This document shows, piece by piece, positions 22,771 through 58,705 of a stretch of DNA of 64,000 nucleotides (the stretch's first letter is position 1; each line of letters begins with the position of its first letter). The position numbers and the translations under genes are program-made. The notes beneath the pieces were generated by a model. The model searched no databases. It was not told where the DNA came from and saw only the letters and a program-made list of their open reading frames with translations. The stretch lies in contig CAXBMO010000009.1 of NCBI GenBank assembly GCA_963977015.1, positions 160,001 through 224,000 of the forward strand. The letters are read 5' to 3'. Source of the DNA: an uncultured bacterium. GTDB lineage: Bacteria > Verrucomicrobiota > Verrucomicrobiia > Verrucomicrobiales > DEV007.

Positions 22771-23442
22771 TCAACGGGTGATGACCGTCGCCCGAATCGG
22801 GGTTTTTGAGCGAGCTTTGCCATAGAGCCTTTCCATCGGAATATCCAACACCGGATACTGCTCCCACCCCACCGCATCAAAGTGCCACCATTCCGTCTTC
22901 ATGATTTTGAACCCATGGCGAACCATGACGGATTGAAGCGTCTTTCGATTCTCGAGAACGCGGCCTTTGAGTTTGAGATACTGGGCGTGGGCTTGCGGCG
23001 TAAAGACGTCGTAGCCAGTCGGCATTTCGAGCTCCCTGCCCATGGCATCGACGAGTGTCAGATCAACCGCCGCGCCTCGATTGTGTCGTGAGCCTCTGGC
23101 CGGGTTCGCCACGAATTTGGGGTTCGGCATGACCTTCCACAACTCCCGCTGGACGGCGAGAGGCCGATATCCGTCCCAGAGTTTCAACCCAAGTCCCTGG
23201 TCTTCCAGTTCAGCCTGAACATTGGCCAACCGTTCCGCGACCGGGCGAAGCAGGTAGGCCCGATGCTCCGGGTAAAATTGTCTGCCACAAAAGTTGTTGG
23301 CCGTCGCATACGGCAGTTCCACAATGATTCCGGGGATGAAGTCATTGATGCAAACCAAGTCTGCGGCCCGAGTTGCCGACGAAGACAGACTTACAATGCC
23401 AACGGTGAGCATCAGAATTCTCATGAGCGGAACCAACATCAT
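22771..23442 (-). CDS. ddpX: D-alanyl-D-alanine dipeptidase (VanX/DdpX, peptidase M15D), exported
   Basis: YATANNF, WDGYRP, SRHNRGAAVDLTL, MPTGYD, EWWHF. Confidence 0.9.
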   Translation of the reverse strand: MMLVPLMRILMLTVGIVSLSSSATRAADLVCINDFIPGIIVELPYATANNFCGRQFYPEHRAYLLRPVAERLANVQAELEDQGLGLKLWDGYRPLAVQRELWKVMPNPKFVANPARGSRHNRGAAVDLTLVDAMGRELEMPTGYDVFTPQAHAQYLKLKGRVLENRKTLQSVMVRHGFKIMKTEWWHFDAVGWEQYPVLDIPMERLYGKARSKTPIRATVITR

Positions 23443-25859
23443 TTGGGACGCATCAAGATTTTACCACTGCTTTGAAGCCGCGTCGCCATCCATCCGACCA
23501 ATTCGGCGTAAACCCAATGCTTCCCATCGACATACCGTTCACTCAGTTGCTTGACGTAGACGTAGTTGTTCACCTCAGCAATTTTGTCACTTCCCGTGTC
23601 CGTGCCTGCGCGCATGGAAAGCACCCCATCGCTTGACTGGACACTCCAGGTTCCGTTGCCGGTCGACTTCATGTAGGTGGTTTGGGTCCCCTCGGCCACC
23701 ATCCACCCTCTCACTCGAACTTCGACCCACCGATTGTTTGCGGTTCGCCCGGTTGCGACCAGAGGAACCGAAAACTGTCGAAACGCGGCGCCCAGACTGG
23801 CCGCATCGCTGTCAGCGGCCGCCCTGACCGTGACACCTTCTTTTCCCGCATAGACCACCTCATAATTGGACACGGCTGGACTTTGCTGAACCGGCGTTGG
23901 ATTCTCCGGGAAGGAAATTTCCGCGTCTTCAATGCGGGCGGAAAGGATAAACCCGGCATCATCAGTTCGGCTCGACTTGATCTCAAAGTAATTGGTTCCG
24001 GTAATGATTTTGCGAGTTGCCCCATCAGAAACGTAGTAGCGGGCCTTCAAGGAAACGGAATATCGCTCGCTCCGAATCTCGCTCACATGGGGCTCACTCA
24101 GAATTTCATGCGTCCTTTGAGTCCACCTCGAATTGTACGCGTTCAGCTTCTCGGCAATTTCATCTCGACCGAGATAACCGTAGTCAAAATAGCGCGCCCG
24201 GTTCGCAAAAAAGCGAAGCTGGTCCTGACCCGAATCACTGTCGCCGGCGCTCAAATAGGCGAGCGCATAGTTTTTGACCGCTTCGCTGTGATCTTCTTTG
24301 ACGGGTTCGGTTTTCGGCTCATCCGGAGGCGGAGTTACGGGTTTGGCGACCGACGCCAATTCGTTGGCTACGTCCATTCGAATTTTTCGAACCCGGTCGC
24401 TCAGTTTGGTCACGGACTTGGAGTGCTTCCTCATTTCGTCCGCCAATTGATTTGCTTCGGCATGAACTTCAGCCGAGGCGCCCTGGCGTTTGGAGATCGA
24501 CAACAATTCGTCCATTCGGTCCATGTTGGCTGACGCTTGATTCGTCATTCTTTCCACTTCATCAACATTGCTTCTGGCCTGGCTACGAAGTGCCGTCAGC
24601 CTGCCCCCCGAAGCGGTGCTGGTTTCCTTGTTAATGGCAATCCAATAGCCGTCTGCCCGATCCCTTTCGCTGCGAATCGTGGCAAAGGTGGTCGAAACCG
24701 ATTGTCGTAGATCCCTCATCGCCGTTGGCGAAGTGCTTCCCGGAACGAAGCCGGCGACGGGATCAACCTTTGGCGGGGGATCGGCAGCATAGGTGATGCG
24801 AGCGGTTGTGCTCTGCACGTCTCCGGGAGGATGGAAACGTTCCCAGGCCAACCATCCTCCTACTCCCAGAATGGCAATGGAGGCAAAAACGACCGCAAAC
24901 AGAAGACCACTTCTCCGATTCGGTTGACGTCCGGTGGCCAATCGTTCTGTTCGCTTTTTGAGTGCGGTTCGTCGTTTCCGGGCATTCTCGAAACATTCCC
25001 GCCATTCCCCCACAGTTTGAGGGCGATGGGTTTCTTCGAAAGATAGGGCGACATCGACGCCGTCAACGAAACCGCTCGAAAAATCCCCCAGGTCCAAGTT
25101 CTGAAAGTTCAACGGATCGACCGCTTTTGTCCGGCCGGCAGCTTCCGGAGGAGCCTTGCCAACCATCGCCCGATACATGACCGCACCCAGCGAATAAATG
25201 TCCGTCCAGGGTCCCTGATTCCCGCTCTCATGATACTGCTCGAACGGGGCATAAGCAGGTGTCAGGACAGCGGTCATCGCCCGGGTCTTTCCGCCCACCG
25301 CCAGTCTCGCACTCCCAAAATCGATCAACACCGGACTGCCATCGCGCGTGATGATGATGTTCTCCGGCTTGATGTCGCGATGCAGATAGCCATTCTCATG
25401 CACAACTTCCAATCCTTCCATGAGCTTGCTGAGAATGGTCCAGAGTTCATCCTCCGAAGGAGTCCGGTCCAATTTTTCCAACCAGTCTCCCAAACTCTCA
25501 CCGTCGAGGAAGTCCGTTACCATGTAGCCGGTGCCATTCGCCTGGAAAATTTCATGAACGCAGACAATGGACTCGTGGTCGCAGGCGGCAAGGATGCGCC
25601 CCTCCTCCATAAATCGCTGTAGCGCCCATTGAAAGGTATCAACATCAGCCTGGGTTTTCGGCGCCACCCTCACTCCATCGCGGGTGGCAAAATCAGACGG
25701 GAGCAACTCTTTGATTGCCACCTTTCTTTTGAGCTCCAGATCCTTAGCCTCGTAGGTGATGCCAAACCCTCCAAAGCCCAGAATTCGGCCCAACTTGTAA
25801 TGACTCAATTGCGTTCCCTCAGCGAGGGCCAACCGATGCGATCTAGCGGTTTGACTCAT
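23439..25859 (-). CDS. Ser/Thr kinase K1: kinase, TM, coiled coil, NTF2-like domain and two SH3b-like repeats
   Basis: GFGGFGITY, VAIKE, HRDIKPEN, DFG, YAPFEQ. TM GLLFAVVFASIAILGVGGWLAW. C-terminal repeats VTVRAAADSDA..WVEVRVRGWM and LSMRAGTDTGS..WVYAELVGWM. Confidence 0.9.
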   Translation of the reverse strand: MSQTARSHRLALAEGTQLSHYKLGRILGFGGFGITYEAKDLELKRKVAIKELLPSDFATRDGVRVAPKTQADVDTFQWALQRFMEEGRILAACDHESIVCVHEIFQANGTGYMVTDFLDGESLGDWLEKLDRTPSEDELWTILSKLMEGLEVVHENGYLHRDIKPENIIITRDGSPVLIDFGSARLAVGGKTRAMTAVLTPAYAPFEQYHESGNQGPWTDIYSLGAVMYRAMVGKAPPEAAGRTKAVDPLNFQNLDLGDFSSGFVDGVDVALSFEETHRPQTVGEWRECFENARKRRTALKKRTERLATGRQPNRRSGLLFAVVFASIAILGVGGWLAWERFHPPGDVQSTTARITYAADPPPKVDPVAGFVPGSTSPTAMRDLRQSVSTTFATIRSERDRADGYWIAINKETSTASGGRLTALRSQARSNVDEVERMTNQASANMDRMDELLSISKRQGASAEVHAEANQLADEMRKHSKSVTKLSDRVRKIRMDVANELASVAKPVTPPPDEPKTEPVKEDHSEAVKNYALAYLSAGDSDSGQDQLRFFANRARYFDYGYLGRDEIAEKLNAYNSRWTQRTHEILSEPHVSEIRSERYSVSLKARYYVSDGATRKIITGTNYFEIKSSRTDDAGFILSARIEDAEISFPENPTPVQQSPAVSNYEVVYAGKEGVTVRAAADSDAASLGAAFRQFSVPLVATGRTANNRWVEVRVRGWMVAEGTQTTYMKSTGNGTWSVQSSDGVLSMRAGTDTGSDKIAEVNNYVYVKQLSERYVDGKHWVYAELVGWMATRLQSSGKILMRPK

Positions 25860-27518: not shown

Positions 27519-29315
27519 ATGGCATTAGAAAACCGACAGGCACTTATTCCAGGCACCATCTTGGGCGAAAAATACGAAATTCTTTCGTTACTCGGAAGCG
27601 GGGGATTCGGAATCACCTATCTCGCCATCGACAATACGCTCAATCGCAAAGTCGCGATCAAGGAGTTGATGCCAGGCGAGTTTGCGATGCGGGATTGGGA
27701 CTCCGAGGAGATCGTCGCAAAAACGCTGTCAGAGGAAACCTCACTCCAGTGGGCCAAGGATCGCTTCATTGAGGAAGCACGGGTACTCGCCCAATTTGAT
27801 CATCCTAACATCATTCATATCCACGACTATTTCATCTCGAGAAACACCGCCTACATGGTGACTTCTTATGAAGAGGGAGCTGATCTCAATACGTTTTTAA
27901 AGGAGAAAGGGCTCTTTCATCAGGAAGACATCAACACTTACATTCTCCCGATCCTCAATGGACTGCAGCTGGTCCACGAAAGCGGATTTCTGCACCGCGA
28001 CATCAAGCCCGACAATATCTACATCAATCACAAGGGCATCCCCATTCTTCTCGACTTTGGAGCGGCCCGCCAAGCCATTGGCAACAAAACCCGGGACATG
28101 ACGGCGATCGTCACGCCCCGATTCGCGCCGTTGGAGCAATACTCCAGCGATGGGAATATGGGGCCGTGGTCAGATATCTATTCCCTCGCCGCCGTCATCC
28201 ACAAAGTCATCACTGGCGATGCCCCACCTGACGCGACGACCCGGATTCGGTCCGATACCTACGAACCGTTGGCGGAAAAGCGCATCAAGGGCTTTGATCA
28301 CGCGTTCTTGACCTGTGTTGACTGGGCCTTGGAACAGTCCGAGGAACGGCGACCGCAAACCATTGCTCAATGGGTCGACCACTTCACGGTTTCGGGAGGC
28401 GCTCCACCAATCCCCACCGATCACTTTTCAGAAACCGTGGTGGCCGGAGGCAGTCGCGCCCCGTCGAGGCCTGTGAGAAGATCCACAGAAGAAACGGTCT
28501 TGACTCAACCTCGCCCCTCTTCAGCGGTTTCCGAACCCAGGAAATCACGCACAGGTCTCATCGCCGCCTTGTTTCTGGGATCAGCACTGTTTCTCGGCTT
28601 GGGAGGATTTGTGGCGCTGCGCCAATATTCCCCCGATCTCATCGCGTTCTTCGATAGCAGCGAATCCGACAATGATTCATCCGGTCCCATTGACGACGGT
28701 ACAGGCGGAAATGACACTGGGGCTCCACCACCCAACCCAATTCCCGAGGACGACAGCAAGCCCGACGTTTCCGAGGAAGAACCGGACAAGCAAACCGAAT
28801 CCCCGATCATCCTCCCACCGACTCCTCCAAAACCGCCGGACGAGACCAAGCCTCCGGTAGAATCAGTTTCACTCGATGAGTTGGTCGACTACGTGACCGC
28901 TGTGGACCGCCGACTGTGGGATGCCTGGTATGCGGACCGAATCATTCGAGCGTCGATCCAACCGCAGATGAACCTTCGTGATCCGGATATGAGCGAAGCG
29001 GAATTTCGGGCCAACCAGACCAAACTCCAGGAAGCCTTCACCGCCCGAAACAATCAGGTCATCCAGTACTGCGAGGACGTTCGCCTCGACGTCGCGAAGC
29101 TGATGAAATACGAAGAGTCGCAAGTGGATCAGGCCTTTGCCGCCAGACTCAGCCAAATCCAGCAAACCGGAGTTGAGCGCAAGGTTAATACGGAAGTTCA
29201 ACAGAAACTTCTTGGAATCGCAAAGTCCATTTATAAGGATGAAAAGGCGGGTTTGATCGTGAACGCAAACGCCATCAGGGAACGAATCAAAGGCCTTTCT
29301 GCATTGCAGAAATAA
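27519..29315 (+). CDS. Ser/Thr kinase K2: kinase, TM, Pro/acidic linker and helical extracytoplasmic domain
   Basis: GSGGFGITY, VAIKE, HRDIKPDN, DFG, FAPLEQ. TM LIAALFLGSALFLGLGGFVAL. Confidence 0.92.
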   Translation: MALENRQALIPGTILGEKYEILSLLGSGGFGITYLAIDNTLNRKVAIKELMPGEFAMRDWDSEEIVAKTLSEETSLQWAKDRFIEEARVLAQFDHPNIIHIHDYFISRNTAYMVTSYEEGADLNTFLKEKGLFHQEDINTYILPILNGLQLVHESGFLHRDIKPDNIYINHKGIPILLDFGAARQAIGNKTRDMTAIVTPRFAPLEQYSSDGNMGPWSDIYSLAAVIHKVITGDAPPDATTRIRSDTYEPLAEKRIKGFDHAFLTCVDWALEQSEERRPQTIAQWVDHFTVSGGAPPIPTDHFSETVVAGGSRAPSRPVRRSTEETVLTQPRPSSAVSEPRKSRTGLIAALFLGSALFLGLGGFVALRQYSPDLIAFFDSSESDNDSSGPIDDGTGGNDTGAPPPNPIPEDDSKPDVSEEEPDKQTESPIILPPTPPKPPDETKPPVESVSLDELVDYVTAVDRRLWDAWYADRIIRASIQPQMNLRDPDMSEAEFRANQTKLQEAFTARNNQVIQYCEDVRLDVAKLMKYEESQVDQAFAARLSQIQQTGVERKVNTEVQQKLLGIAKSIYKDEKAGLIVNANAIRERIKGLSALQK

Positions 29316-33279: not shown

Positions 33280-34542
33280 ATGGGAGCCGACCTTTCATTG
33301 CCCCTCAAATCCCAAATTGGAGCCTACAGTGTTCAACGTGTTTTGGGGCAGGGAGGTTACGCCATTACCTACGCCGCAAGGGCGAAAAATGGAGAACTTG
33401 TTGCGATCAAGGAATTGTTTCCTGAGCAGTTCTCACGACGTAGCCCGGACAACTGGGTTTCGCCTAAACCCGGCGATCAGGAAGATTTTGAATATATTAA
33501 AGAACGCTTTGTTCGAGAGGCGAGAATGGTTTGCGGGTTCAATCACCCCAATCTGCTCAAAGGGCTGGATTGGTTCGAACAGAATGGGACTGCCTACATC
33601 GTTATGCGATATGAATCAGGCCTCCCTCTCCATCAGCATCTTCGCAATAAATCGAGCAACTTTAAGGTTACTCCCGGAAGCATCGCCAGGCTCTTTCAGG
33701 GTCTGCTCGTCGCGTTAAAAGTCGCCCACGACCAGCATTGCGTCCACTGCGACATCAAACCAGGAAACATCTATCTTGGCGAAAATTTTCTCCCGGTGTT
33801 GTTGGATTTTGGTGCAGCCCGCCACGCCGTCAACGAACGGCTTTATCAAGCCCACGAATCACTGGTCCCATTCACGGAATACTACGCCCCAATTGAACAG
33901 TATCCGGAGCATTCCGGGGAGATTGGCCCCTGGACCGATATCTATCAGCTTGCGGCCGTGATCTATCGCTGTCTGACTGGCGGCAAAATCCCGTCAGCCA
34001 TCGATCGGGTCGTGAAAGGAGCACCGGATCCCTATTACCCGCTGAGCCAACTCGTCATCAAAGGAAAGGGCTATCCAGTAGAGTTTCTCGAAGCGGTTGA
34101 TTGGGCGCTCGCGATCCAACCTCGAGACCGCCCTCAATCGATTTCGGAATGGCGCCGACGTTTGGATCGCCCGATGAAGCGAATGGCGCGGGAAGCCAAG
34201 AAGACTGTGCGAATTGATGCGCGCGATCGCCCCATTGTCGAAACGGTTGAAAATACTGAACTGCCACCAGAAACGCTCGAAACCCTGACCGTTGTCTCCA
34301 AAGGCGCCAAGTCAGGGTATGAACGCCGGAAAACCCAAAACGTTCCCGACGACTATGATATAGACCAAAGTCTTGGCAAAAGATCCTCCGACGGGCGAAC
34401 GCCAGTCGCCTTTCGAGTCATTATATGGTGCTTGGTACTCGCCATCGTGGTCCTCATTTTCCTGATGGTGGCAGAAAATTTCGGCTGGAACCTGCGTTTT
34501 CTGGCTGACTATTGGGATGAAATCCGCGACTCGGCCAACTGA
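33280..34542 (+). CDS. Ser/Thr kinase K3 (non-RD, HCD) with C-terminal TM and essentially no ectodomain
   Basis: GQGGYAITY, VAIKE, HCDIKPGN, DFG, YAPIEQ. TM VIIWCLVLAIVVLIFLMVA. Confidence 0.9.
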   Translation: MGADLSLPLKSQIGAYSVQRVLGQGGYAITYAARAKNGELVAIKELFPEQFSRRSPDNWVSPKPGDQEDFEYIKERFVREARMVCGFNHPNLLKGLDWFEQNGTAYIVMRYESGLPLHQHLRNKSSNFKVTPGSIARLFQGLLVALKVAHDQHCVHCDIKPGNIYLGENFLPVLLDFGAARHAVNERLYQAHESLVPFTEYYAPIEQYPEHSGEIGPWTDIYQLAAVIYRCLTGGKIPSAIDRVVKGAPDPYYPLSQLVIKGKGYPVEFLEAVDWALAIQPRDRPQSISEWRRRLDRPMKRMAREAKKTVRIDARDRPIVETVENTELPPETLETLTVVSKGAKSGYERRKTQNVPDDYDIDQSLGKRSSDGRTPVAFRVIIWCLVLAIVVLIFLMVAENFGWNLRFLADYWDEIRDSAN

Positions 34543-37053: not shown

Positions 37054-37833
37054 TCATACAACCCGAAAGACAACGACGGTTATATTGTCCTGCCGGTCTT
37101 TCCGGCGCGATTCCACTGTCTGGATCAGTTGCTTACAGACAACGGATGCATCCGATGCTTCATGAATCTCAATCGTTGCCCGCAGTTTCTCCAAAGGAAG
37201 CGTATCCAAGCCATCGGTAGCCACAATGATCATGTCACCTTTCTCCACTTCTACCGGAGGTTTGCCCTGATCAAGAGCGCCTTCCGTCAACGGCTCACCA
37301 ATGATCGCTGATCGGAGGACATTTCGATCCGGGTGATTCTCAGCATCCTCAGCCGTCATTTCACCCCGCTCAACCTGGGCTGCCAAAATTGGCGCCATCG
37401 AATGGTCATCGTTGAGCCTTTTGAATTGCTTGGAAGCTCTGCTGAAATGATAGAGGGTGGAATCTCCGATGCTCGTCCAACGCAGCATGTTGTCCCTCAA
37501 GAATGCCGCAACCAGCGTGGTGCCCATGCCCGAGTAGGTTTGGGGCTCTTCTTCGCACAACTTGCGAATCGCCTCGTTGGCACCTCGCAAGCCCTTTGAT
37601 AGTCTCACCGTATCGACGTCGAGCGACTCAGAAAATTCGCGAAGGAAATTTTCCGTTGCCACTCGACTTGCAATATCTCCGGCCGCATGTCCGCCCATCC
37701 CATCCGCGACGACGACGAGTAGGTCTCCGCCCCGAACTCCGAGCGCATCTTCAATTGCAACCTGATAGTAGTCTTCCTGATAGGGACGATCACCTTGAGA
37801 TTGCCTTCCAGCAATATCCCGTTCAGGCTCCAT
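37054..37833 (-). CDS. Soluble PP2C/PPM phosphatase
   Basis: GDRPYQED, ADGMGGH, GMGTT, IGDS, DHS, ATDGL, QDNIT. Confidence 0.93.
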   Translation of the reverse strand: MEPERDIAGRQSQGDRPYQEDYYQVAIEDALGVRGGDLLVVVADGMGGHAAGDIASRVATENFLREFSESLDVDTVRLSKGLRGANEAIRKLCEEEPQTYSGMGTTLVAAFLRDNMLRWTSIGDSTLYHFSRASKQFKRLNDDHSMAPILAAQVERGEMTAEDAENHPDRNVLRSAIIGEPLTEGALDQGKPPVEVEKGDMIIVATDGLDTLPLEKLRATIEIHEASDASVVCKQLIQTVESRRKDRQDNITVVVFRVV

Positions 37834-38519
37834 TAGACGAGGGTATTGTCACTCCAGTCAAATTGTTCGCCACACAGAGGAACAAACTTGAGGGTGGTCC
37901 CTCCAATTCGAATCAATTCTCCGCCAGCAAGCTCAACAGGAGTCAAAACCGGGCTTTGCTCGGCGCCCAGGTAGGTGAGGTTGCTGCCTTGGGTGTTCGG
38001 TTGAACGAAATATTTTCGACTGCGCGGATCATAGGTAATAATCGCGTGGGCACTTCGCGAAACTTCCTGATCACCAAACGGCAACGGAACGCGGTTGTCA
38101 GGATTACGACCGATTTGATTCATGCCATAACCCAAAGTCAAGGCGCTGCCACGGCCTGGTCCCGCAACAATGACAACCCAGCCAACAACCGGGTCTTCGA
38201 TTTCACCGGGAGCTTGGGGATTGCCCTGTGCAACGCCGCCTGCAGGAGCAATTCCTGGTGCGGGCTCGATACCACCTGCCGCCACAGGCCTAACCAAACG
38301 CGTCTTGTCGCTGTCAGCTCCAGAATTCGATCCCGGCCCACCCTGCGAAGCAGGCTGATTGATCACTGAGGTGTTGTCATCCTGGATGCCTGAGCGCTCA
38401 ACAATTCGGGTTGCTTCCGGATCATCGCTACTGGTTCTCCTGATCTCCTGGCTCTGTTCTTGATAGTCCGCATCGCTTGGGCGTCTACGAATAATTCGAG
38501 TCGTGTCATCGTTGCTCAT
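37833..38519 (-). CDS. FHA protein with disordered N-terminal tail bearing repeated Thr motifs (GarA/OdhI-like architecture)
   Basis: FHA motifs IGR..VSRSAH..GSN. Tail motifs DDTTRII, EATRIV, DNTSVI, DKTRLV. TAATG overlap with the PP2C gene. Confidence 0.88.
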   Translation of the reverse strand: MSNDDTTRIIRRRPSDADYQEQSQEIRRTSSDDPEATRIVERSGIQDDNTSVINQPASQGGPGSNSGADSDKTRLVRPVAAGGIEPAPGIAPAGGVAQGNPQAPGEIEDPVVGWVVIVAGPGRGSALTLGYGMNQIGRNPDNRVPLPFGDQEVSRSAHAIITYDPRSRKYFVQPNTQGSNLTYLGAEQSPVLTPVELAGGELIRIGGTTLKFVPLCGEQFDWSDNTLV

Positions 38520-41476: not shown

Positions 41477-42463
41477 TTAGTTTCCTAAAGAACTAAGCCC
41501 AACAAATTGTCCTCCATTGCGATCAGCAAGCTTGAAAAGGAAGGATACGAACTCCGCATCCTCGGTATAATCCCCAACCGCCACCGTGTGGATTTCCTTC
41601 CTCCCAGCATTTTGACTGGTGATTTGGCTCAAAATTTCGTCGTGGGTCGCATCATTGGGATTTCCATCAGTGAACAGAATGACCGCCTCCGCCGAGCTGT
41701 TAAGCGCCTTTTTGAGCGCGGTCAGGGTTGGGGTTTGCCCCCGGAACTCCGAGGTCCACTTGCGGACCGTCGCCTTGGCTTCCGAAATCCCGCTGCTGTT
41801 CATCGTCCGCAAGGTTGGAAACGGTTCCGGCCAAACGTGAAAAATGGGTGTGGTCGCCTCGGTACTGTCCGTATGAAACCCCAGCATCGACATCTGATAA
41901 CCGGAATCCATGGGATCGACCATTTGCGCCACGGCCTGTTCGGTAATCGTTTTGTATTCTTTCATACTTCCCGACATATCCACCACAAAAATGAGCTTTT
42001 TGGCTTGGGTCACAATTCCGAGAAAAGCCAACCGGTGGGCCTCTTCCAACTCTCGTTCCAAGGATCTGGCGCGTTCTTCGGCATTGCGACGAGCGACTTC
42101 CAGGTCTTTTACCTGCCGATTCGCCTTTTTCTTGGCTTCTTCCAAACTCGCGACGGCACTGCGGGCCTCCGCCTGGGCTTGATTGGCCTTCTGCCGCATC
42201 GCCTCTGCCTCATCGGCGTTCACCCGAGCCATTTTTTCGGCTTCGATTCGTGCTTCAACGGCCTTTCTGGAAGCGCTTTCCGCTTGCGCCCGCAGTTGCT
42301 CCAAAAGAAAGACGTTTCGTTGAGCCTCCTCAAAATCCCGCGAGGTCTTCTGGTAATACTGCGTCAGAATGATCATCAGCAGCATGAACGCCCCCATCGC
42401 ACACGCAAAAAGGTCAACCATGGACAGACTGAACGTCTCAATCGTGCGGCTGCGTTTTCTCAT
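41477..42463 (-). CDS. ExbD/TolR-like N-terminal TM, coiled coil and vWA domain protein
   Basis: MRKRSR..FSLSMVDLFACAMGAFMLLMII (Asp at the start of the TM), A/E/K/R-rich coil, MIDAS DMSGS..T..TDG. Confidence 0.85.
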   Translation of the reverse strand: MRKRSRTIETFSLSMVDLFACAMGAFMLLMIILTQYYQKTSRDFEEAQRNVFLLEQLRAQAESASRKAVEARIEAEKMARVNADEAEAMRQKANQAQAEARSAVASLEEAKKKANRQVKDLEVARRNAEERARSLERELEEAHRLAFLGIVTQAKKLIFVVDMSGSMKEYKTITEQAVAQMVDPMDSGYQMSMLGFHTDSTEATTPIFHVWPEPFPTLRTMNSSGISEAKATVRKWTSEFRGQTPTLTALKKALNSSAEAVILFTDGNPNDATHDEILSQITSQNAGRKEIHTVAVGDYTEDAEFVSFLFKLADRNGGQFVGLSSLGN

Positions 42464-42821
42464 GTCCTGCCATTTTGCATAAGTTCGATCTGGGAAAAAC
42501 TGTTCTAATCGATCAGATCGTCAACCTCAAGTATCAATCTGACAAGGCCCCGCCAAAAGCCTTCGCCCAATACCGGAATCACACTTTTTTCGCATTCGGA
42601 GCAAACAGTTCCGACCGGAATTCGAAATGCATCCAGTCGAAGTGATCCCAAGGAAGGTAAAAGCGTAACTTCGCATTTCCCGACATCGAAAGTTCAACGG
42701 AAGCGGGCGGTAGGAGGCTCCAATTCGATTGCCTCGTAAGATTAGGCTTGCCGACGAAAGCGCTCACGGTTTAAAAACGATCGTAGGCTATATTGATAAT
42801 CAAACGGCAGGATTCCAAGTG

Positions 42822-44561
42822 ATGGACGCGATACAGGAGCGACGACCATTGAAACCGCGGTCTCGATTGGGTGACTACCGAATCGACCAAGTCCTTCAAC
42901 AGGGAGGTCTCGTCGTGTCCTATCTCGCTCACGATCTGCAGTTGAAGAAACCGGTGGTGGTCGAGGAATTGGTTCCGCAGGGCCTGGCTGGTCGCTCCTC
43001 GGGCGAGGCGGTGTTGCCATCGAATGGTGAATGCCCGGTTACGTTCGCCCAGGCGAAAGAGGCGTTTATCGCGGAAACGAAATTGGTCGCCGGAATCACT
43101 CATCCCAATGTGATTCACGTCCTGCGCTTGTTTGAGGCAAACAACACGGCCTATCGCGTTGTCGAGCACGTGCGGGGGCCGAATTTGGAGACGTTTCTGA
43201 GCCTTGCCGAAAAGCCCATTCCGGCTCACACGCTACGCAGACTCCTGAGCCAGATTCTGGCCGGACTCGAACGCATCCATCAACGCGGGTTTGCTCACCT
43301 CGGCATCTCACCGGTCACGATCATGGTGGCGGAGGATACGAAGCGGCCCGTCTTGGCGGAATTCGGGATCGCCCGCGCCAAGTTGCGAAACTCCGGTTGG
43401 ACGAACTCCGAAATCGCGGGCGACTGCCTTGCTCCCGAGCTTTCACCTTCCGTGCCCGATGAAGCGGGCCCGCACTCCGACATCTATGCTTTCGCCAAAA
43501 CGATCCATCGGGCCTTGATCGAAAGTTCTCCGGAACGCGATCAAATATCCGGAGCGGAGGGACTGAGTGGTGACTCGATCCTGATCAACCGCTATGGCCT
43601 TGCGTTTTTGAGGGAACTCGAGCGGGGATCCAGTCAAAATCCCGCAACTCGGCCACAGAGTGCTTCCGAATGGTCAGAGTTGCCTGAACTGCTTTCTCCT
43701 CATGAAGCAGATCCCAAACCGGCGCAAATCCTGACACGGAGAAAAAAGGGGGGAAGTTGGCGAATTGGAAACGGGTTTTGGAAGCTTCTTCACCAGGACG
43801 GTGAGTCCGCCCCCGTTGAATCCAAGGCGATTCAAAGCACTCCAGCAATTATCGAACCGCCTCCCGCCATTGATCCTGACCCCGTTGTCGCCCCCCCTGA
43901 AGTTTTGCCAGCCGAGCCGCCACCAGTTTCCAAGCCCCTGGTGGCGGATGTCCCAATTATTGAGCCCCCTTCCGCAGTAGACGAAGTTCTGGAAATACCG
44001 GTCCCCCTACCGGTTTCGGTCCCGGACCACCAAGTACCGGCCATACCAGAGGATCCCGTGGAAGCCATTCACGAAAACGAAATCCCTTCCCCTGCCGCGA
44101 ATTCCTCCCCCACTCCAGAATCTCCTCCAGAATCTCCTCCAGAATCTCCTCCAGAATCTCCTCCAGATTCCGTGCCATTGCCGCTCGTTGCCCCGCTACC
44201 TCCTCCGGCTCCCGTTGAGGAGATCCCGCAAAAACCTGCCCAACCAACCGTCACCTCGCTGGAGATCATCGCCGGTCCCGGGCAGGGCAATTCTCTTCCT
44301 CTCGGCACAGGCCTCAATCGGATCGGTTCCAGCGGCGAAAACGAGATTCCGCTTCAGTTCGGCGATGCACAGGTTGCCCAGATTGCCCACGCCTTCATCC
44401 TGCGCGACCCGAAGCGACAAGCCTTCTTCCTGCAACCCAACGTGTCCGGCGCAGCACTCCTTTATCTGGGGGAAGACGAGTCGCTCGTTTTGGCTCCTGT
44501 CGAATTGCGCGGCGGCGAGCTGATTCGCATTGGGAACACCAAGCTGAGGTTCATGGCCTAG
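42822..44561 (+). CDS. Pseudokinase K4, Pro-rich linker and degenerate FHA
   Basis: Kinase fold with QQGGLVVSY, VVVEEL, HLGISPVT and EFG. C-terminal FHA closely similar to 37833-38519. Start taken at ATG 42822. Confidence 0.85.
   Translation: MDAIQERRPLKPRSRLGDYRIDQVLQQGGLVVSYLAHDLQLKKPVVVEELVPQGLAGRSSGEAVLPSNGECPVTFAQAKEAFIAETKLVAGITHPNVIHVLRLFEANNTAYRVVEHVRGPNLETFLSLAEKPIPAHTLRRLLSQILAGLERIHQRGFAHLGISPVTIMVAEDTKRPVLAEFGIARAKLRNSGWTNSEIAGDCLAPELSPSVPDEAGPHSDIYAFAKTIHRALIESSPERDQISGAEGLSGDSILINRYGLAFLRELERGSSQNPATRPQSASEWSELPELLSPHEADPKPAQILTRRKKGGSWRIGNGFWKLLHQDGESAPVESKAIQSTPAIIEPPPAIDPDPVVAPPEVLPAEPPPVSKPLVADVPIIEPPSAVDEVLEIPVPLPVSVPDHQVPAIPEDPVEAIHENEIPSPAANSSPTPESPPESPPESPPESPPDSVPLPLVAPLPPPAPVEEIPQKPAQPTVTSLEIIAGPGQGNSLPLGTGLNRIGSSGENEIPLQFGDAQVAQIAHAFILRDPKRQAFFLQPNVSGAALLYLGEDESLVLAPVELRGGELIRIGNTKLRFMA
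44113..44167 (+). repeat. 12-bp tandem repeat CTCCAGAATCTC, four perfect copies plus a partial copy, encoding (PESP)n
   Basis: Read directly from the sequence. Confidence 0.95.
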
Positions 44562-44591
44562 CCCTGCTCTCAACCCCTCATCCATGCTTCG

Positions 44592-47500
44592 ATGATCAAG
44601 TTAAAAGTTTTTGTCAGTTCTCCCGGCGATGTGGCCCGCGAACGGGAAATCGCCCGGCGCGTCATGGCGAGGGTCGAGAATCGATTCGCCGGACAAGTTG
44701 AGATTGAACCCTATCTTTGGGAACACGAACCGCTCCAGTCTTCGGCGGATTTTCAGGGCAACATTCCCCCAACCTCCTCATTCGATCTCGTCATTTGCAT
44801 CCTTTGGACGAGGCTGGGAACTCGTCTCGGACCGCAATATCAAACGACGGAAGGGAGGCGCTTCAACTCCGGAACCGAGTTTGAGGTGTTGACCACCATT
44901 GAAGCTCAAGATCAACCGCCACAGGGGCTTCCCATTCTCAGCATCTTTTTGAACAAGACGGATTGGAAGGTGCCGACCCAAGATCTTAGTGCCGCGCAAA
45001 GTCAATTGGCTCAACTCCAAAAGCTCCGCGACTTTTTGGCTCAATTGTTTTTTGAGCAGGATGAAGAAGATGAGTCGGTGACCCTGAACAAACGCGCGTT
45101 CAATCAATACCATTCCCTCGATCAATTTGAGGATCTCTTGAACAAACAGATCGTTCAGCTGATCGAGAAGAAGCTCCGTGACCGACCCGAAGGCGGACTG
45201 GCCCCGCCCGAAAAGCGGAAGGCCAGTTGGAAGGGAAATCCCTATCGCGGCCTGGAGGTCTTCGAATTCAAACACGCCGCCATTCTTTATGGGAGAACCC
45301 GGGCAACCGAGTCCGTTCTCAATGCCCTGAAGTCCAGATGGGACGCTGGTTGCGGCTTCACCCTGATTTTGGGAGCCAGCGGAACCGGAAAAAGCAGCCT
45401 CGTTCGCGCCGGGGTGTTGCCTCTCCTCATTCAACCCGGCGTCGTCGAAAAGGTCGGGCTTTGGCGGCGTGCCTCGATCATGCCCGGCCGGTCTTCCGGC
45501 GATGCGATGGATGCCTTGTCAGCCGCCCTCCTCTCCCCCGAAGCCCTGCCCAACCTCGCCCCCATCGAAGATTCCGAGCGCGTTCACCAATTGGCCGCCG
45601 AACTGCGAACCATGCCGGAGTTTGTCGCCGATAGAATCCGAGACGAACTTCGTCAGGCCGGGCACACCTGGTTGGTGGAAGAAAAAGTGAAGCTGAACGA
45701 GAAAGCCAGCCAACTGAGCCGGGAAGGGCGGAGTCAGGACGCGGCGACACTGGAAGCGCAAATCCAGGGGATGGCCGCCCCGGAAACCCGGTTGGTCATT
45801 TTGGTCGATCAGTTTGAGGAACTCTTTACCTCGACCATTTCCGAAGAAGCCAGAATCGAGTTTGTGCGGGTCATCGACTGTTTCGCGAGAATGGGAGAGA
45901 CGGCGGTGATTGCAACGATGCGTTCGGATTTCTATGCGTCCTACCAGCGCTATCCCTTGCTGATCAACCTTGCCGGTGAAACGGGGAGAGTCGATCTCAC
46001 CCCGCCTCAACCCATTGAAATCGGGGAAATGATCCGAGGTCCCGCGGAAGCCGCCGGTTTACAGTTTGAGATCGATGCGGAAACCAATCAATCGCTCGAC
46101 GAAGCCTTGCGTGACGCCGCCATGGAAAGCCCCGAAGGTCTTCCCTTGTTGGAGCACGTTCTCAAGTTGCTGTTCCAGCTTCAAGCAGAACGTCAGGACG
46201 GCTGGCTTCGGTGGGAAGACTATCGAAAGCTGGGTGAGTTTTCGGGCGCTCTATCCCAACATGCTGATCAGGTTCTGGGCCAGTTGAAGAGCAGTTCCCT
46301 GGAAGTCCTGGACGATGTGCTCGAAAGCCTGATCACGGTTGGAGTCAGCGAAGAGAGCAAGCCGGTGCGACGAATTGCCAGATACGACCTGGTCGCAACC
46401 CATCCGGCCGTTTCCAATTTGATCGAAGCGTTCGTGGATGCCCGACTTTTTACAACCGGCAAGGATGAACAGGGCCGGGCGACGGTTTCCGTGGCTCACG
46501 AAGCCCTGCTTCGCGTCTGGCCACGAATCACCGAGTGGATTGAGGAGAACCGCGATTTCCTGCAAATGCGAGCCCGGCTCGAAACCGCTCGAAAAGCGTG
46601 GGAAGCCGCCAAAGAACACCCGGACTTTCTCCTGGATCACGGCCGCCCTCTCGCTGAGGCGGAAGAGCTTCAAAGCCGATATGGAAGCGCCTTGGCCGAG
46701 CGAGACCGCACCTTTATCCGCCTCTCCAGCGCCGCGGTCCACCGCGTGGAAAACCGGAATCGCCGCATTCGCCGAACCGTCCTCTCCGGAATTTCCACGC
46801 TCGCCCTGATCGCAATCGGCTTTGCCATCTTTGCCAATCGCATGCAGGCGAAGGCGGTCGAAGAACGGCAGGCCACCGAAGCGGCAAACCTGGCAATCTT
46901 GAAAGGCAACGCGAGATCTGCAAAACAATCGCACAAATTGGCGGAGGCCGCGCTTTGGGACGTCGCCTTGATTGAGGCGAAACAACGCCTGGGGCAACCC
47001 AACCGGCTGGATCAGCTTCGCCTGCTCGCCTTGGAACCGGAATTAGATTTCTTTCGCTGGCGCTTGCCGAGCAATGGCAGAGTCCGGCAAATCGTTCCAC
47101 GTTCTTCGGGCGAATCCGTCTTTCTCAATCTCGGTTCCCGGGATCTGCTTCACGCGACACGAAACGAAGATGGAGATTGGAACCTTGAAGCATTGAACGC
47201 GATCCGCGAGCCGGTCTTCACCATCGCCCCATCGCCCGGAGACGAAGGCATTCTGTTCGTCATCACCAGACAAAAACTCATCGCCATGAACGTGAATTCC
47301 ATGACGCAGCTTTGGGAGTTTGCGGCGGACGAAGGTGAGTTTTCGCCTGCCCTGTCGGTGACCGAAAACGTTTGGGTTTGGCTGGGCAATCAGCTTCTCG
47401 GGATTGATCCCTCCAAAGGAACCGTCAAGGTCTCCATGCAGACCGGCCTTTCCTCCGCGTCGACCATTGACGCCGCCGTGATCGACGCCGCGCAAGGGAA

Positions 47501-56737: not shown

Positions 56738-58705
56738 TTAATTCAGGGATTGAAAGACGATGACGATGACCCCGATGGTGAGGGAGATGGCGGTGAGAAG
56801 GGAAAGGGTGCCAATGCCGGCCCAAACGAGACGCTGCTTCTTGAGGACCTTGTTGAGGGAAGAGACTTTGGGCGCTTGTTTGGCGCGACCGATGGAGATG
56901 GCCATCTGAAACTGGGAGAGCACAATGGAGAAGAGGATGATGGCGAGGACGCCAAGAAAGCTGCCGAAGCCAATAATGGGGGCTTCTTCTTCCTGAACTC
57001 CGCCCAAAATCATCACGGTAGCCCCCAAGGCAAAGAAGCCCGAAACGAGGAGGCCGACGATACCGAGGATGACGACAAAGGGCTGAAATTTGCTAAACTC
57101 GCGAACGAGGCCCATGAACTCGGGTTCTTGCTCGAGCCGTAGCTCTTCTTCGCGAAGAATGGCGGCTTCTTCTTCCTGCTGTTTGGCGAGGGCCCCCTCC
57201 TCTGCTTTCTTTTTCGCAAGGCGAGCTTCCTCCTCTGCCTTCTTCTTGGCGAGTTTTTCTTCCTCGGCGGCTTTTTTCCGGGCCTGACGCTCTTCTTCTT
57301 CGGCTTTCTTTTTGGCGAGACGCTCTTCTTCCCTGGCTTTTCGCTCCTCTTCTTCCGCTTTTTTCCTGGCGAGGCGTTCTTCCTCCTCTTGTTGCTTCTT
57401 CGCTAAAGCTTCGGCCGCTGTTTCATCGTCGTCATCATCATCGGGCAGCGGTTGGCGGACGGGTTCACGCTCCTCGGGCAGGGACGGCGGCGTAATGGCT
57501 TTGGCCCCGCTTTGACGCTTGGGATCGATGAGGATGGTGCCGCCGGGTTCGGCATCCTGGGCAATCTTGGCAGACTCGCTTCCTTCCTTGCGGAGGATGA
57601 CACCGTCTTCATCCATTTCCGTGGCGACTTTGTCAGCTTTGGCCTCGGCTATTTTGGCGGAGGCGGCTTCCAGTTGGCGGGCGACGTTCTGTTTGGTGGC
57701 AGTCCAGGCGGAGGCGCCAAATTTGAGTCCCTTGCCAATGGCTTCACCAATTCCGGCGCCAACCGCCGCAGGGTCTTTGGACTCCGGGGAGTCAGCCACG
57801 ACGTGCTCAAAAAGTCCCCGCCACTCGGCAACGGTCCGCGGGCGTTTGTCTTCGTCGACTTCAAGCGCGCGGTCGATCGCACGAAGGAAGGCCAGCTCGG
57901 CGCGATCCGGGTTCTTGATGATTTTGGCGAGTTTCTCGACCGGGTCGGGTTTCTTCTTCAACCGCGCGTTGGCGCGTTGGCTGGAATCGGTTGGTTTTTC
58001 GCCGAGTAGGCAGCGATAGCAAACCGCGCCGAGGGCATAGAGGTCCGTCCAGGGCCCCTGAAGCTGAGGATCACCCGAGTATTGCTCAAACGGAGCGTAT
58101 CCAGGGGTGACGATGCTGGTCACGGAGCGGCTTTTTTCGGCAATGCCCTGCCGGGCAGCGCCAAAGTCGAGCAAAATGGGCACGCCCTTCTCCGTAATGA
58201 TGATGTTGTCGGGCTTGATGTCGCGGTGCAGGACGTCATTGCGATGCACTTCCTCAAGACCATTGGCCAACTGGAGGATGATCTCGCGCACGTCCTCCAA
58301 CGGAAGGCGATCTCGCTCAGACTTGCTGAGACGCTTGCCCAAATCGTCGCCTTCCACGTATTCCATGACGCAGTAGACGGTCTCATTGGCCTGAATGACG
58401 CGATGAACGCCGACAATGTTGGGGTGTTTGAACTTGGCCAAGGTCCGCGCCTCTTCGATAAAGGCGTCTCGCGCCCACTCGAACTCGTCTTTGTGACCGA
58501 TGGTGATGGGAATGACGGTGCAACCGGTCCCCCGCATCGCGATCCCGTCAGGCAGCAACTCCTTGATGGCAACCTTCAGCCCAAGGTCGATATCCTGAGC
58601 GAGATAGGTGATGCCAAAGCCGCCTTTGCCCAGAACTTTGAGAATTTGATACCCCTCAATCCGAAATTCGGCGGGCAAGGAGATCTGGTCCTGAGGGTTA
58701 TCCAT
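56738..58705 (-). CDS. Ser/Thr kinase K6: kinase, charged helical repeat and 3-TM DUF5362-like C-terminus
   Basis: GKGGFGITY, VAIKE, HRDIKPDN, DFG, YAPFEQ. EEERLAKKKAE repeats and three C-terminal TMs. Confidence 0.92.
   Translation of the reverse strand: MDNPQDQISLPAEFRIEGYQILKVLGKGGFGITYLAQDIDLGLKVAIKELLPDGIAMRGTGCTVIPITIGHKDEFEWARDAFIEEARTLAKFKHPNIVGVHRVIQANETVYCVMEYVEGDDLGKRLSKSERDRLPLEDVREIILQLANGLEEVHRNDVLHRDIKPDNIIITEKGVPILLDFGAARQGIAEKSRSVTSIVTPGYAPFEQYSGDPQLQGPWTDLYALGAVCYRCLLGEKPTDSSQRANARLKKKPDPVEKLAKIIKNPDRAELAFLRAIDRALEVDEDKRPRTVAEWRGLFEHVVADSPESKDPAAVGAGIGEAIGKGLKFGASAWTATKQNVARQLEAASAKIAEAKADKVATEMDEDGVILRKEGSESAKIAQDAEPGGTILIDPKRQSGAKAITPPSLPEEREPVRQPLPDDDDDDETAAEALAKKQQEEEERLARKKAEEEERKAREEERLAKKKAEEEERQARKKAAEEEKLAKKKAEEEARLAKKKAEEGALAKQQEEEAAILREEELRLEQEPEFMGLVREFSKFQPFVVILGIVGLLVSGFFALGATVMILGGVQEEEAPIIGFGSFLGVLAIILFSIVLSQFQMAISIGRAKQAPKVSSLNKVLKKQRLVWAGIGTLSLLTAISLTIGVIVIVFQSLN

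Follow-up and report, generated by a model that had tools for sequence, protein, structure and literature searches.

A predicted pseudokinase fused to a predicted phospho-blind FHA domain in a STAND NTPase operon of a marine Verrucomicrobiales bacterium

This study concerns psK-FHA*, the product of an open reading frame (ORF 42822-44561) in the genome of a marine Verrucomicrobiales bacterium, located within a 64 kb stretch of DNA (C9:160001-224000) that is called the window below. The protein joins a kinase-fold domain (psK) to a C-terminal FHA domain (FHA*) through a Pro-rich linker, and both domains are predicted to have lost their activity. Nevertheless, the gene appears to be maintained by selection beside a gene for a STAND NTPase. 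The reading that we rank first, and to which we give an even chance, is that psK-FHA* is a functional non-enzymatic subunit (adaptor or scaffold) of a genus-specific three-gene STAND module.

Predicted inactivation of both domains

Sequence and structure comparisons were used to identify the N-terminal domain. Pfam Pkinase (PF00069) matched psK at E 2.1e-17 (63.9 bits against a cut-off of 31.7), and a phmmer search against the PDB returned the type VI secretion system (T6SS) kinase PpkA as the best match (5hnv, E 1.8e-33), with the runner-up at 1.4e-11. In the AlphaFold2 model of the whole protein, residues 11-290 and 475-579 form confident domains, mostly with a predicted local distance difference test score (pLDDT) above 90, and the Pro-rich linker between them is disordered. 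The top Foldseek matches of psK were also PpkA structures (5x1r/5hnv, E 3e-21, TM-score 0.84). These data indicate that psK is a Hanks-type kinase by fold and, judged by its closest similarity, belongs to the PpkA-like clade.

The catalytic positions were read from alignments with PpkA, with the 11 nearest database homologues, and with the five other kinase-fold proteins of the window. The beta3 Lys is replaced by E48 (VVVEE), HRD by H159-L160-G161, the catalytic Asn by T166, and DFG by E180-F181-G182. All four catalytic residues are kept in 11/11 of the nearest homologues, and they are intact in the four other plain kinases of the window (4/4) and in those of the corresponding island in a congener, G001 (3/3). 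The motif changes described in the initial annotation (VAIK to VVVE, HRDIKPxN to HLGISPVT, and DFG to EFG) were borne out by all three sets of alignments. With all four required residues gone (the beta3 Lys, the HRD Asp, the Asn, and the DFG Asp), psK is predicted to be dead as an enzyme.

Within the genome, the paralogues nearest to psK are the other five proteins of the window that have a kinase fold, and its identity to the island kinases is 27.7-33.3%. Within the PpkA-like clade, psK forms an isolated long branch whose exact placement varies by tree, and these comparisons do not show the kinase part to be a copy of any neighbour. A grouping with the kinase-TIR protein of the window and with a dead domain of P0130, as placed by FastTree, was not adopted; an IQ-TREE quick tree did not support it (64%, drawn open), and it possibly reflects long-branch attraction.

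Concerning the C-terminal domain, the closest relative of FHA* is the stand-alone FHA protein of ORF 37833-38519. BLASTP of the C-terminal 130 residues against this ORF gave 63/130 identical positions (48%) at E 2e-35, and the alignment has five gap positions, all of them upstream of the FHA fold. In FHA domains, the Arg of the GR motif, the Ser (or Ser-Arg) before the His, and the Asn of the S-x-N loop contact phosphothreonine (pThr). In FHA*, GR has changed to GS (S503), SR to AQ (A519, Q520), and GSN to GAA (A544, A545), and the His is retained (H523); a profile of the FHA subfamily places the substituted columns on GR, SRRHA, and SLNGT of GarA. Both the near-gapless alignment and the GR, SR, and GSN changes had been pointed out in the initial annotation, and they held.

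The FHA* segment modelled alone reached a pLDDT of 91.9, and the top Foldseek matches listed for it were all FHA domains (among them GarA, OdhI, FhaA, and EmbR), with TM-scores of 0.7-0.88. Pfam FHA (PF00498) gave no match to the segment at E <= 0.01, the lone match being Yop-YscD_cpl at E 0.007, which is below its cut-off. FHA* is an FHA domain by fold from which the pThr-reader residues are gone, and it is predicted to be phospho-blind.

In a maximum-likelihood tree of 17 FHA domains of this subfamily, the two FHA* copies (of this genome and of G001) and the two stand-alone FHAs of their genus form sister groups (support 95/92), and the FHA* stem in this tree has a length of 1.5 changes per column. 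This indicates that the local gene was duplicated in the genus lineage, then changed fast, and later came under constraint. Copying from a neighbour, as proposed in the initial annotation, is supported by this tree for the FHA part; for the kinase part no donor is demonstrable.

A C-terminal tail that is conserved in all 15 stand-alone members of the subfamily is lost from FHA*. In the stand-alone FHAs (15/15, including loci L018-L030), this tail at the end of the protein consists of a conserved Val-Pro-(Leu/Phe)-Cys ... Trp. The protein of ORF 37833-38519 also contains, in its N-terminal half, three Thr-Arg-(Ile/Leu)-(Ile/Val) motifs resembling pThr+3 FHA ligands.

Conservation and distribution of psK-FHA*

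A full-length, stop-free orthologue was found in one congener (G001) among 41 related genomes, with 48% identity at E 3e-117. Its kinase part reads VVIEE, HLG, His for the catalytic Asn, and GFG, and its FHA positions read GT, AA, and TA. As the same losses are present in the G001 orthologue, both sets of losses predate the split of the two species. E48 and HLG are identical in both orthologues, the sites of the catalytic Asn (T/H) and of the DFG Asp (E/G) differ, and the Gly-rich loop is degraded further in G001. The frames are open in both species, over 579 and 623 codons. In the window, the open frame spans 42729 to 44561 (+), and ATG 42822 was taken as the start because conservation with the orthologue begins exactly there; the alternative start TTG 42729 is unlikely.

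Identity between the orthologues amounts to 60% in the N-lobe, 61% in FHA*, 44% in the C-lobe, and 32% in the linker, where all indels are located, all in frame. Synonymous sites between this genome (G000) and G001 are saturated, the proportion of differing synonymous sites (pS) being about 0.75 in all 12 gene pairs. The corresponding non-synonymous proportion (pN) is 0.350 for the kinase part, 0.270 for FHA*, and 0.467 for the linker. The values of the two domains are in line with those of neighbours whose motifs are intact (active kinase, 0.298; trypsin-FHA protein, 0.374; STAND, 0.282).

Variation at a smaller distance was provided by a contig of a close strain (run X1), which covers 42108-43633 with 25 differences. 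In the psK coding part (42822-43633), 13 differences were found, of which 11 are synonymous and two are non-synonymous (H136P and R140K), corresponding to a pN/pS of about 0.06 (204.7 synonymous and 605.3 non-synonymous sites) and a binomial P of 1.2e-5 for at least 11/13 synonymous changes, with transition bias ignored. The X1 piece over FHA* (44138-44697) is identical to the window, and in three marine-metagenome runs of one study the contigs were identical wherever psK-FHA* was covered. These data indicate that psK-FHA* is intact, conserved, and under purifying selection, and that it is not decaying. The check on purifying selection that had been proposed in the initial annotation was thereby passed, as the orthologue has the same losses, pN is far below the saturated pS, and the X1 changes are mostly synonymous. 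In the same X1 contig, the upstream region 42490-42816 holds 11 of the 25 differences (about 3%, vs 1.6% in the coding part), nine of which cluster at 42575-42661.

The linker diverges fast, and its basic/aromatic motif (Table 1) is located shortly after the kinase domain. The linker also contains a perfect in-frame 12-bp tandem repeat (44113-44167), which codes for a repeated Pro-Pro-Glu-Ser stretch; length variation is likely there.

Large-scale searches showed that the protein has a narrow distribution. When the full psK-FHA* sequence was searched by word index against 5.8 billion proteins, 127 matches were obtained, all to the kinase part only and none with the fusion, with at most 41% identity over at most 72% of the query; for the FHA* region, the 318-1014 aa length class of this set yielded 216 candidates and none at E <= 0.001. 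In a profile search of 1.84 billion representatives, the only full-length match was the G001 protein. Contigs of species-representative genomes gave three loci, of which the sole full-length one (L036) was the G001 locus again, and metagenome contigs gave three loci, including one 100% identical copy (L039) and no new diverged orthologue. The FHA subfamily was present in 15/401 genomes of the order, 13 of them with stand-alone proteins (212-348 residues), and the long frame was restricted to G000 and G001. With this query, psK-FHA* was not found in two more genomes of the genus, G002 (92% complete) and G003 (59% complete).

The STAND operon and the surrounding signalling island

psK-FHA* is the first gene of a three-gene plus-strand operon, in which it is followed by an nSTAND1 NTPase and a putatively secreted 1158-aa protein, and the order is conserved in G001. 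psK-FHA* and the STAND gene are separated by a 31-bp gap here and share a 4-bp overlap in G001. In G001, psK-FHA* is likewise divergent from a VWA gene, the STAND has 57% identity, and the third gene has 48-52% identity with a 4-bp overlap. The description of an uninterrupted ORF heading a run with the STAND gene agrees with the open frame and with this conserved operon. The third gene is present in 2/401 genomes of the order, and all three genes co-occur in G000 and G001 only. Upstream of psK-FHA*, a single sigma-70-like match was found at 42771-42800, which is not above chance; the scan gave one promoter-like site (3.3 expected) and eight terminator-like sites (14.6 expected).

The STAND protein is identified as an nSTAND1 NTPase by its family match (Pfam nSTAND1, PF20703, E 4e-87) and by intact Walker motifs, namely G-x-S-G-x-G-K-S at residue 261 for Walker A and, for Walker B, a segment at residues 401-410 in which D-Q-x-E-E comes after hydrophobic residues. 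Its N-terminus was compared with DUF4062 and gave a sub-threshold E of 0.11, and this family was absent from the 25 most frequent families of the relatives. A transmembrane (TM) helix is predicted at residues 728-749 (bases 46773-46838), with a run of Arg before it, and is kept in G001. The C-terminal region of about 1030 residues beyond the helix is predicted to be extracytoplasmic. Neither this region nor the third gene product matched anything in Pfam, NCBIfam, or PADLOC; the ESM Atlas gave, as leads only, a TPR-like fold for the third gene product (0.91) and a WD40-like fold for the STAND C-terminus (0.89).

As the STAND C-terminus lies behind a predicted TM helix and the operon partner has a signal peptide, sensing is probably located outside the cytoplasm. 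No signal peptide or TM helix was predicted in psK-FHA* by a simple hydropathy script. The arrangement thus suggests a membrane-spanning STAND whose sensing side is outside the cytoplasm, accompanied by a secreted partner, with psK-FHA* on the cytoplasmic side.

Relatives of the STAND are informative about the link with the kinase fold. For residues 1-720, 7999 candidates were scored, of which 3382 matched at E <= 1e-10; the top matches from outside the genus show 40-45% identity over 93-100% of this region. The Pkinase Pfam domain occurs in at least 36/120 of the listed relatives. In all ten kinase-STAND relatives inspected (10/10), the kinase is placed directly N-terminal to the STAND N-terminal domain with HRD and D(F/L)G kept, and a TM-like helix after the NTPase is followed by WD40, TPR, or ankyrin repeats. 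These fusions (metagenomic P0301, P0308, P0322, P0333, and others) have the same backbone of N-terminal domain, nSTAND1, and TM helix, with 40-44% identity over 720 residues; they differ from psK in that the kinase is fused, catalytically intact, and of another lineage, and no FHA is found in any of them. A kinase fold on the N-terminal side thus recurs in this STAND subfamily without being universal, and in the present operon a separate, predicted dead kinase with a predicted dead FHA occupies that position. The fused active kinases in the relatives therefore support the link between the kinase fold and the STAND.

Two side observations concern this subfamily. As WD40-bearing relatives have a similar helix after the NTPase, their WD40 arrays may be extracytoplasmic. 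Among the related STAND loci of the order, a separate active kinase gene lies directly upstream in 1/8 (G121); at this locus (L061, G121:C23, 6872-9733 on the minus strand), which belongs to another family of the order, an intact kinase-TM-WD40 gene is located 73 bp upstream of the STAND on the same strand, which makes this locus a live-kinase counterpart of the psK-FHA* arrangement.

The initial annotation had proposed structure prediction as a check on the STAND interaction, and the answer was partial. The prediction for STAND residues 1-710 with psK residues 1-290, both with alignments, gave a score of 0.33 (runs of 0.39, 0.33, and 0.00), compared with a best of three of 0.00 for the controls, and the tool's verdict was weak support. 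The contact agreement between runs was at least 0%, and the partner pLDDT was at least 77. In the calibration of the tool, its mark was reached by 58/80 solved complexes and 2/110 mismatched pairs; at scores of 0.60 or under, it was reached by 7/80 solved complexes and by both passing mismatches. This result is taken to increase the likelihood of binding slightly, and by no more than that.

The operon lies in a large and unusually dense Ser/Thr-signalling island that is contained in the window and is largely syntenic, yet rearranged, in G001 (Table 1). Genes for two trypsin-FHA proteins, two PP2C phosphatases, and one FHA-FHA-ABC transporter are interspersed among those of the four intact kinases. 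The minus-strand operon divergent from psK-FHA* reads VWA / VWA-FHA / FHA / MotA-ExbB / FHA / PP2C / FHA-FHA-ABC, and its VWA gene stands head-to-head with psK-FHA* in G001 as well. At least one TM helix is predicted in each of the window's other five kinase-fold proteins, and none in psK-FHA*. The kinase domain of the kinase-TIR protein is also degenerate (Lys kept, HLN, EFG), and this protein has no orthologue in the G001 island.

In the PpkA-like clade, the 33 best representatives (P0124-P0156) include 27 with at least two, and up to five, kinase-like domains; the ranking by summed score favours multi-domain proteins. At least one domain is short of at least one catalytic residue in 21/27 of these multi-kinase proteins, two of which rest on partly aligned domains. 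The kinase domains mostly pair within a protein in trees, which suggests repeated independent tandem duplications. One representative, P0148, is a kinase / canonical FHA / pseudokinase / TIR-like protein.

Table 1. Positions of psK-FHA*, its parts, and neighbouring features in the window.
Feature	Position	Strand	Description
psK-FHA*, whole ORF	42822..44561	+	579 aa plus stop: pseudokinase, Pro-rich linker, predicted phospho-blind FHA
Kinase-fold domain, residues 1-290	42822..43691	+	PpkA-like clade; E48, H159-L160-G161, T166, E180 at catalytic positions
Pro-rich linker, residues 291-472	43692..44237	+	Predicted disordered, pLDDT 37-55; fast-diverging
Basic/aromatic motif, residues 308-322	43743..43787	+	K308-L322 columns invariant in both orthologues; shortly after kinase domain
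Perfect 12-bp tandem repeat	44113..44167	+	4.6 copies, in frame; Tandem Repeats Finder: 100% matches, score 110
FHA* domain, residues 473-579	44238..44558	+	FHA fold without pThr-contact residues
Intergenic region, VWA gene / psK-FHA*	42464..42821		Between divergent genes
nSTAND1 NTPase, 1778 aa	44592..49928	+	Conserved N-terminal domain, NTPase, one predicted TM helix, C-terminal region of about 1030 aa
Third operon gene, 1158 aa	49925..53401	+	Signal-peptide-like N-terminal segment; start overlaps STAND stop (ATGA)
Stand-alone FHA protein, 228 aa	37833..38519	-	GR, SR..H, SN intact; closest relative of FHA*; Pfam FHA E 1.2e-6, above cut-off
VWA protein	41477..42463	-	N-terminal TM helix; first gene of divergent operon
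Kinase-TIR protein, 895 aa	53415-56102	-	Convergent to operon; TIR residues 590-694; C-terminal TM helix
Intact PpkA-like membrane kinases	23439-25859, 27519-29315, 33280-34542, 56738-58705		One to three predicted TM helices each

Possible roles of psK-FHA* and comparison with known systems

The adaptor or scaffold role was ranked first because of the conserved, translationally coupled operon, the fusions at the output end in STAND relatives, the predicted solubility of psK-FHA*, the conservation of its N-lobe and FHA*, and the precedent of YukC/EssB. The active kinase of the relatives is found at the N-terminus, on the output side, and this favours a role as adaptor or in output over that of an input bait. 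In such a role, soluble psK-FHA* would bind the cytoplasmic part of the STAND. An extracytoplasmic signal would set the state of the STAND, and psK-FHA* would couple this state, by protein-protein contacts, to the island of membrane kinases, FHA proteins, PP2C phosphatases, and VWA proteins around it. The conserved N-lobe may pair with PpkA-like paralogues, either as their allosteric partner or in competition with them, and FHA* may hold an FHA partner independently of phosphorylation, as EssB holds the FHA domains of EssC.

Several points weigh against this proposal or limit it. Every functional statement on psK-FHA* is one that we infer, and the partner kinase and the FHA ligand are hypothetical ones with which it may interact. 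The TM helices come from a simple hydropathy script and not from a dedicated predictor, and the evidence for conservation covers two species, as one diverged pair and one strain variant. The kinases fused to the STAND relatives have 23-26% identity to psK and belong to another lineage; therefore, psK is no split-off piece of these kinases, and the analogy is positional only. Moreover, a kinase gene is missing from the position directly upstream at 7/8 of the related STAND loci inspected from the order, the neighbours there being unrelated or divergent. The proposed STAND binding is based on gene order, the fusions in relatives, and the weak complex prediction, and by the tool's own statement most passes of this kind are false where the pairing was not probable beforehand.

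The closest precedent for the proposed pairing is found in type VII secretion. As far as the sources consulted in part describe it, the T7SSb pseudokinase YukC/EssB binds phospho-blind FHA domains of YukB/EssC without phosphorylation (PMC9600267, PMC11217815), which resembles the present case in having an ATP-non-binding kinase fold and phospho-blind FHAs beside a membrane P-loop ATPase. In contrast, two separate membrane proteins of a secretion system are involved there and one soluble fused polypeptide here; psK is of PpkA-like Hanks descent, and the ATPase here is nSTAND1 and not FtsK-like. No EssB entry was among the best 60 PDB sequence matches to psK, and no type VII secretion component (EssC-like, WXG100) was among the window genes scanned. 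With neither a TM helix nor a type VII secretion locus, psK-FHA* does not appear to be of the EssB/YukC type, from which it is set apart without a direct EssB comparison. The DUF6382-FHA proteins TseJ/TsfJ of T7SSe and T7SSf, as far as they are described in the same source (PMC11217815), are likewise two-domain cytoplasmic proteins with a C-terminal FHA that are accessory to a membrane ATPase, but they represent another sequence family, belong to Bacillota, and have no STAND partner.

The PpkA / Fha1 / PppA pathway of T6SS comprises membrane kinases, FHA proteins, PP2C phosphatases, VWA domains, and an ABC transporter. The island has the same parts list, and PpkA is the closest solved kinase to psK; psK-FHA* differs in having no catalytic or pThr-reading residues, no TM helix, and no VWA domain. 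No T6SS structural gene was found among the genes scanned, although the window was not exhaustively searched for them.

Among pseudokinases, the bacterial families ActPs1-3, GLW, CP1, DYD, and DLHK are described as consisting of pseudokinases throughout, and pseudokinases with all three catalytic motifs degraded, as in psK, form the class said to lack ATP binding (PMC12599244); this likeness is by description only. The text available of that source mentions neither an FHA fusion nor PpkA-like descent nor a STAND partner (0 occurrences each of STAND, PpkA, tandem, and decoy, and 1 of FHA). Kinase or FHA effector domains are also on record for nSTAND1 systems (PMC8195603, seen in part). A fused dead-kinase/dead-FHA protein in an operon with a STAND was not found described in the literature consulted, which is a limited claim.

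A guarded decoy is a different explanation, and we regard it as unlikely. According to it, psK-FHA* mimics the island kinases and FHA adaptors, an effector of a phage or competitor that targets those proteins acts on the mimic by binding or modification, and the STAND senses this and fires, comparable with the plant pseudokinases ZED1/RKS1, which work with the NLR (nucleotide-binding leucine-rich repeat receptor) ZAR1 (PMC6634424, PMC9539561, PMC7475706, each seen in part). The resemblance to ZED1/RKS1-ZAR1, as far as these sources go, lies in an inactive kinase-fold protein genetically tied to a STAND-class NTPase. Both domains of psK-FHA* are paralogous to proteins of the same island, functionally dead yet selected, and the operon with the STAND is conserved. 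psK is also alone among the six kinase-fold proteins of the window in having no predicted TM helix, which fits a soluble mimic, and the complex prediction scored above its controls, though weakly.

However, the sensor side of the STAND lies behind the predicted TM helix, and the signal is probably extracytoplasmic. In ZAR1, the pseudokinase docks on the C-terminal leucine-rich repeat sensor, and STAND sensors normally sit in the C-terminal region. The corresponding region here is predicted to be extracytoplasmic, so the likeness is functional at most, with homology limited to the folds. As the STAND C-terminus lies beyond the TM helix and psK-FHA* has neither a signal peptide nor a TM helix, ZAR1-style docking on the sensor is therefore unlikely. 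In addition, both domains would be poor mimics because they are strongly diverged, as shown by the long FHA* stem and the low identity of psK to the island kinases, and the kinase in the STAND relatives is active and at the output end. PADLOC gave no known defence genes beyond generic kinase similarity. The fuller form of the decoy explanation, a bacterial counterpart of the plant pseudokinase-NLR guard in which the STAND holds a soluble double mimic copied from the island and fires upon effector attack, is held with still lower confidence.

Inactive enzyme domains, kinases included, have been proposed as decoy or dominant-negative effectors in the MoxR-vWA (VMAP) ternary conflict systems of prokaryotes (PMC7159879, seen in part), which lends the decoy explanation some support. 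The locus itself does not appear to be such a system by its gene content, since no MoxR is found in the window (all 10 PF07726 matches in the genome are outside it), no VMAP was identified, and the dead domains form a separate protein that is unfused to vWA or VMAP.

It is also improbable that psK-FHA* acts independently of the STAND, as a dominant-negative or scaffolding paralogue that regulates the divergent VWA/FHA/MotA-ExbB/PP2C/ABC operon or the island kinases, the STAND link being co-regulation only. FHA* descends from the FHA of this divergent operon, the head-to-head arrangement with the VWA gene is kept in G001, and there are bacterial pseudokinases known to act as regulators of kinase paralogues or to recruit FHA proteins, such as MviN with FhaA (PMC12599244, seen in part). 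On the other hand, the 4-bp overlap with the STAND in G001 and the co-occurrence of the three genes argue for one functional unit, and 13/15 genomes with the stand-alone FHA have no fused copy, which indicates that the divergent operon needs no psK-FHA*.

An atypical enzyme, in which the kinase fold retains nucleotide binding or has gained another activity, as happened in some pseudokinases of eukaryotes and bacteria, is very improbable. The fold is confidently predicted, the identity of E48 and HLG in both orthologues suggests that these positions are constrained, and some pseudokinase families bind ATP by alternative modes (PMC12599244, seen in part), but the four canonical residues are all gone, the orthologues have different residues at two of these positions, the Gly-rich loop is more degraded in G001, and no alternative catalytic set is conserved. 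Finally, a recently inactivated gene heading to loss has a negligible probability and was rejected: the restriction of the family to two species with no copy found in G002 and G003, and a psK pN among the highest of the island genes, would fit decay, but the same losses across saturated synonymous divergence, the open frames, the excess of synonymous changes in X1, and conservation held by the domains with in-frame indels in the linker only contradict it.

What is new here is the fusion of a dead kinase and a dead FHA domain in a STAND operon, found in two uncultured species only; pseudokinases, phospho-blind FHAs, decoys, and nSTAND1 proteins of kindred types were already known. Bacterial pseudokinases have barely been studied, and phospho-blind FHAs are known mainly from type VII secretion. 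In psK-FHA*, the writer and the reader of a phospho-signalling pair appear to have been disabled together, fused, and maintained by selection beside a STAND. The live fused kinase of the STAND relatives and the dead separate adaptor proposed here would form a testable pair for the transmission of STAND activation through a kinase fold, and psK-FHA* with its STAND would allow the decoy logic of plant NLRs to be tested in bacteria.

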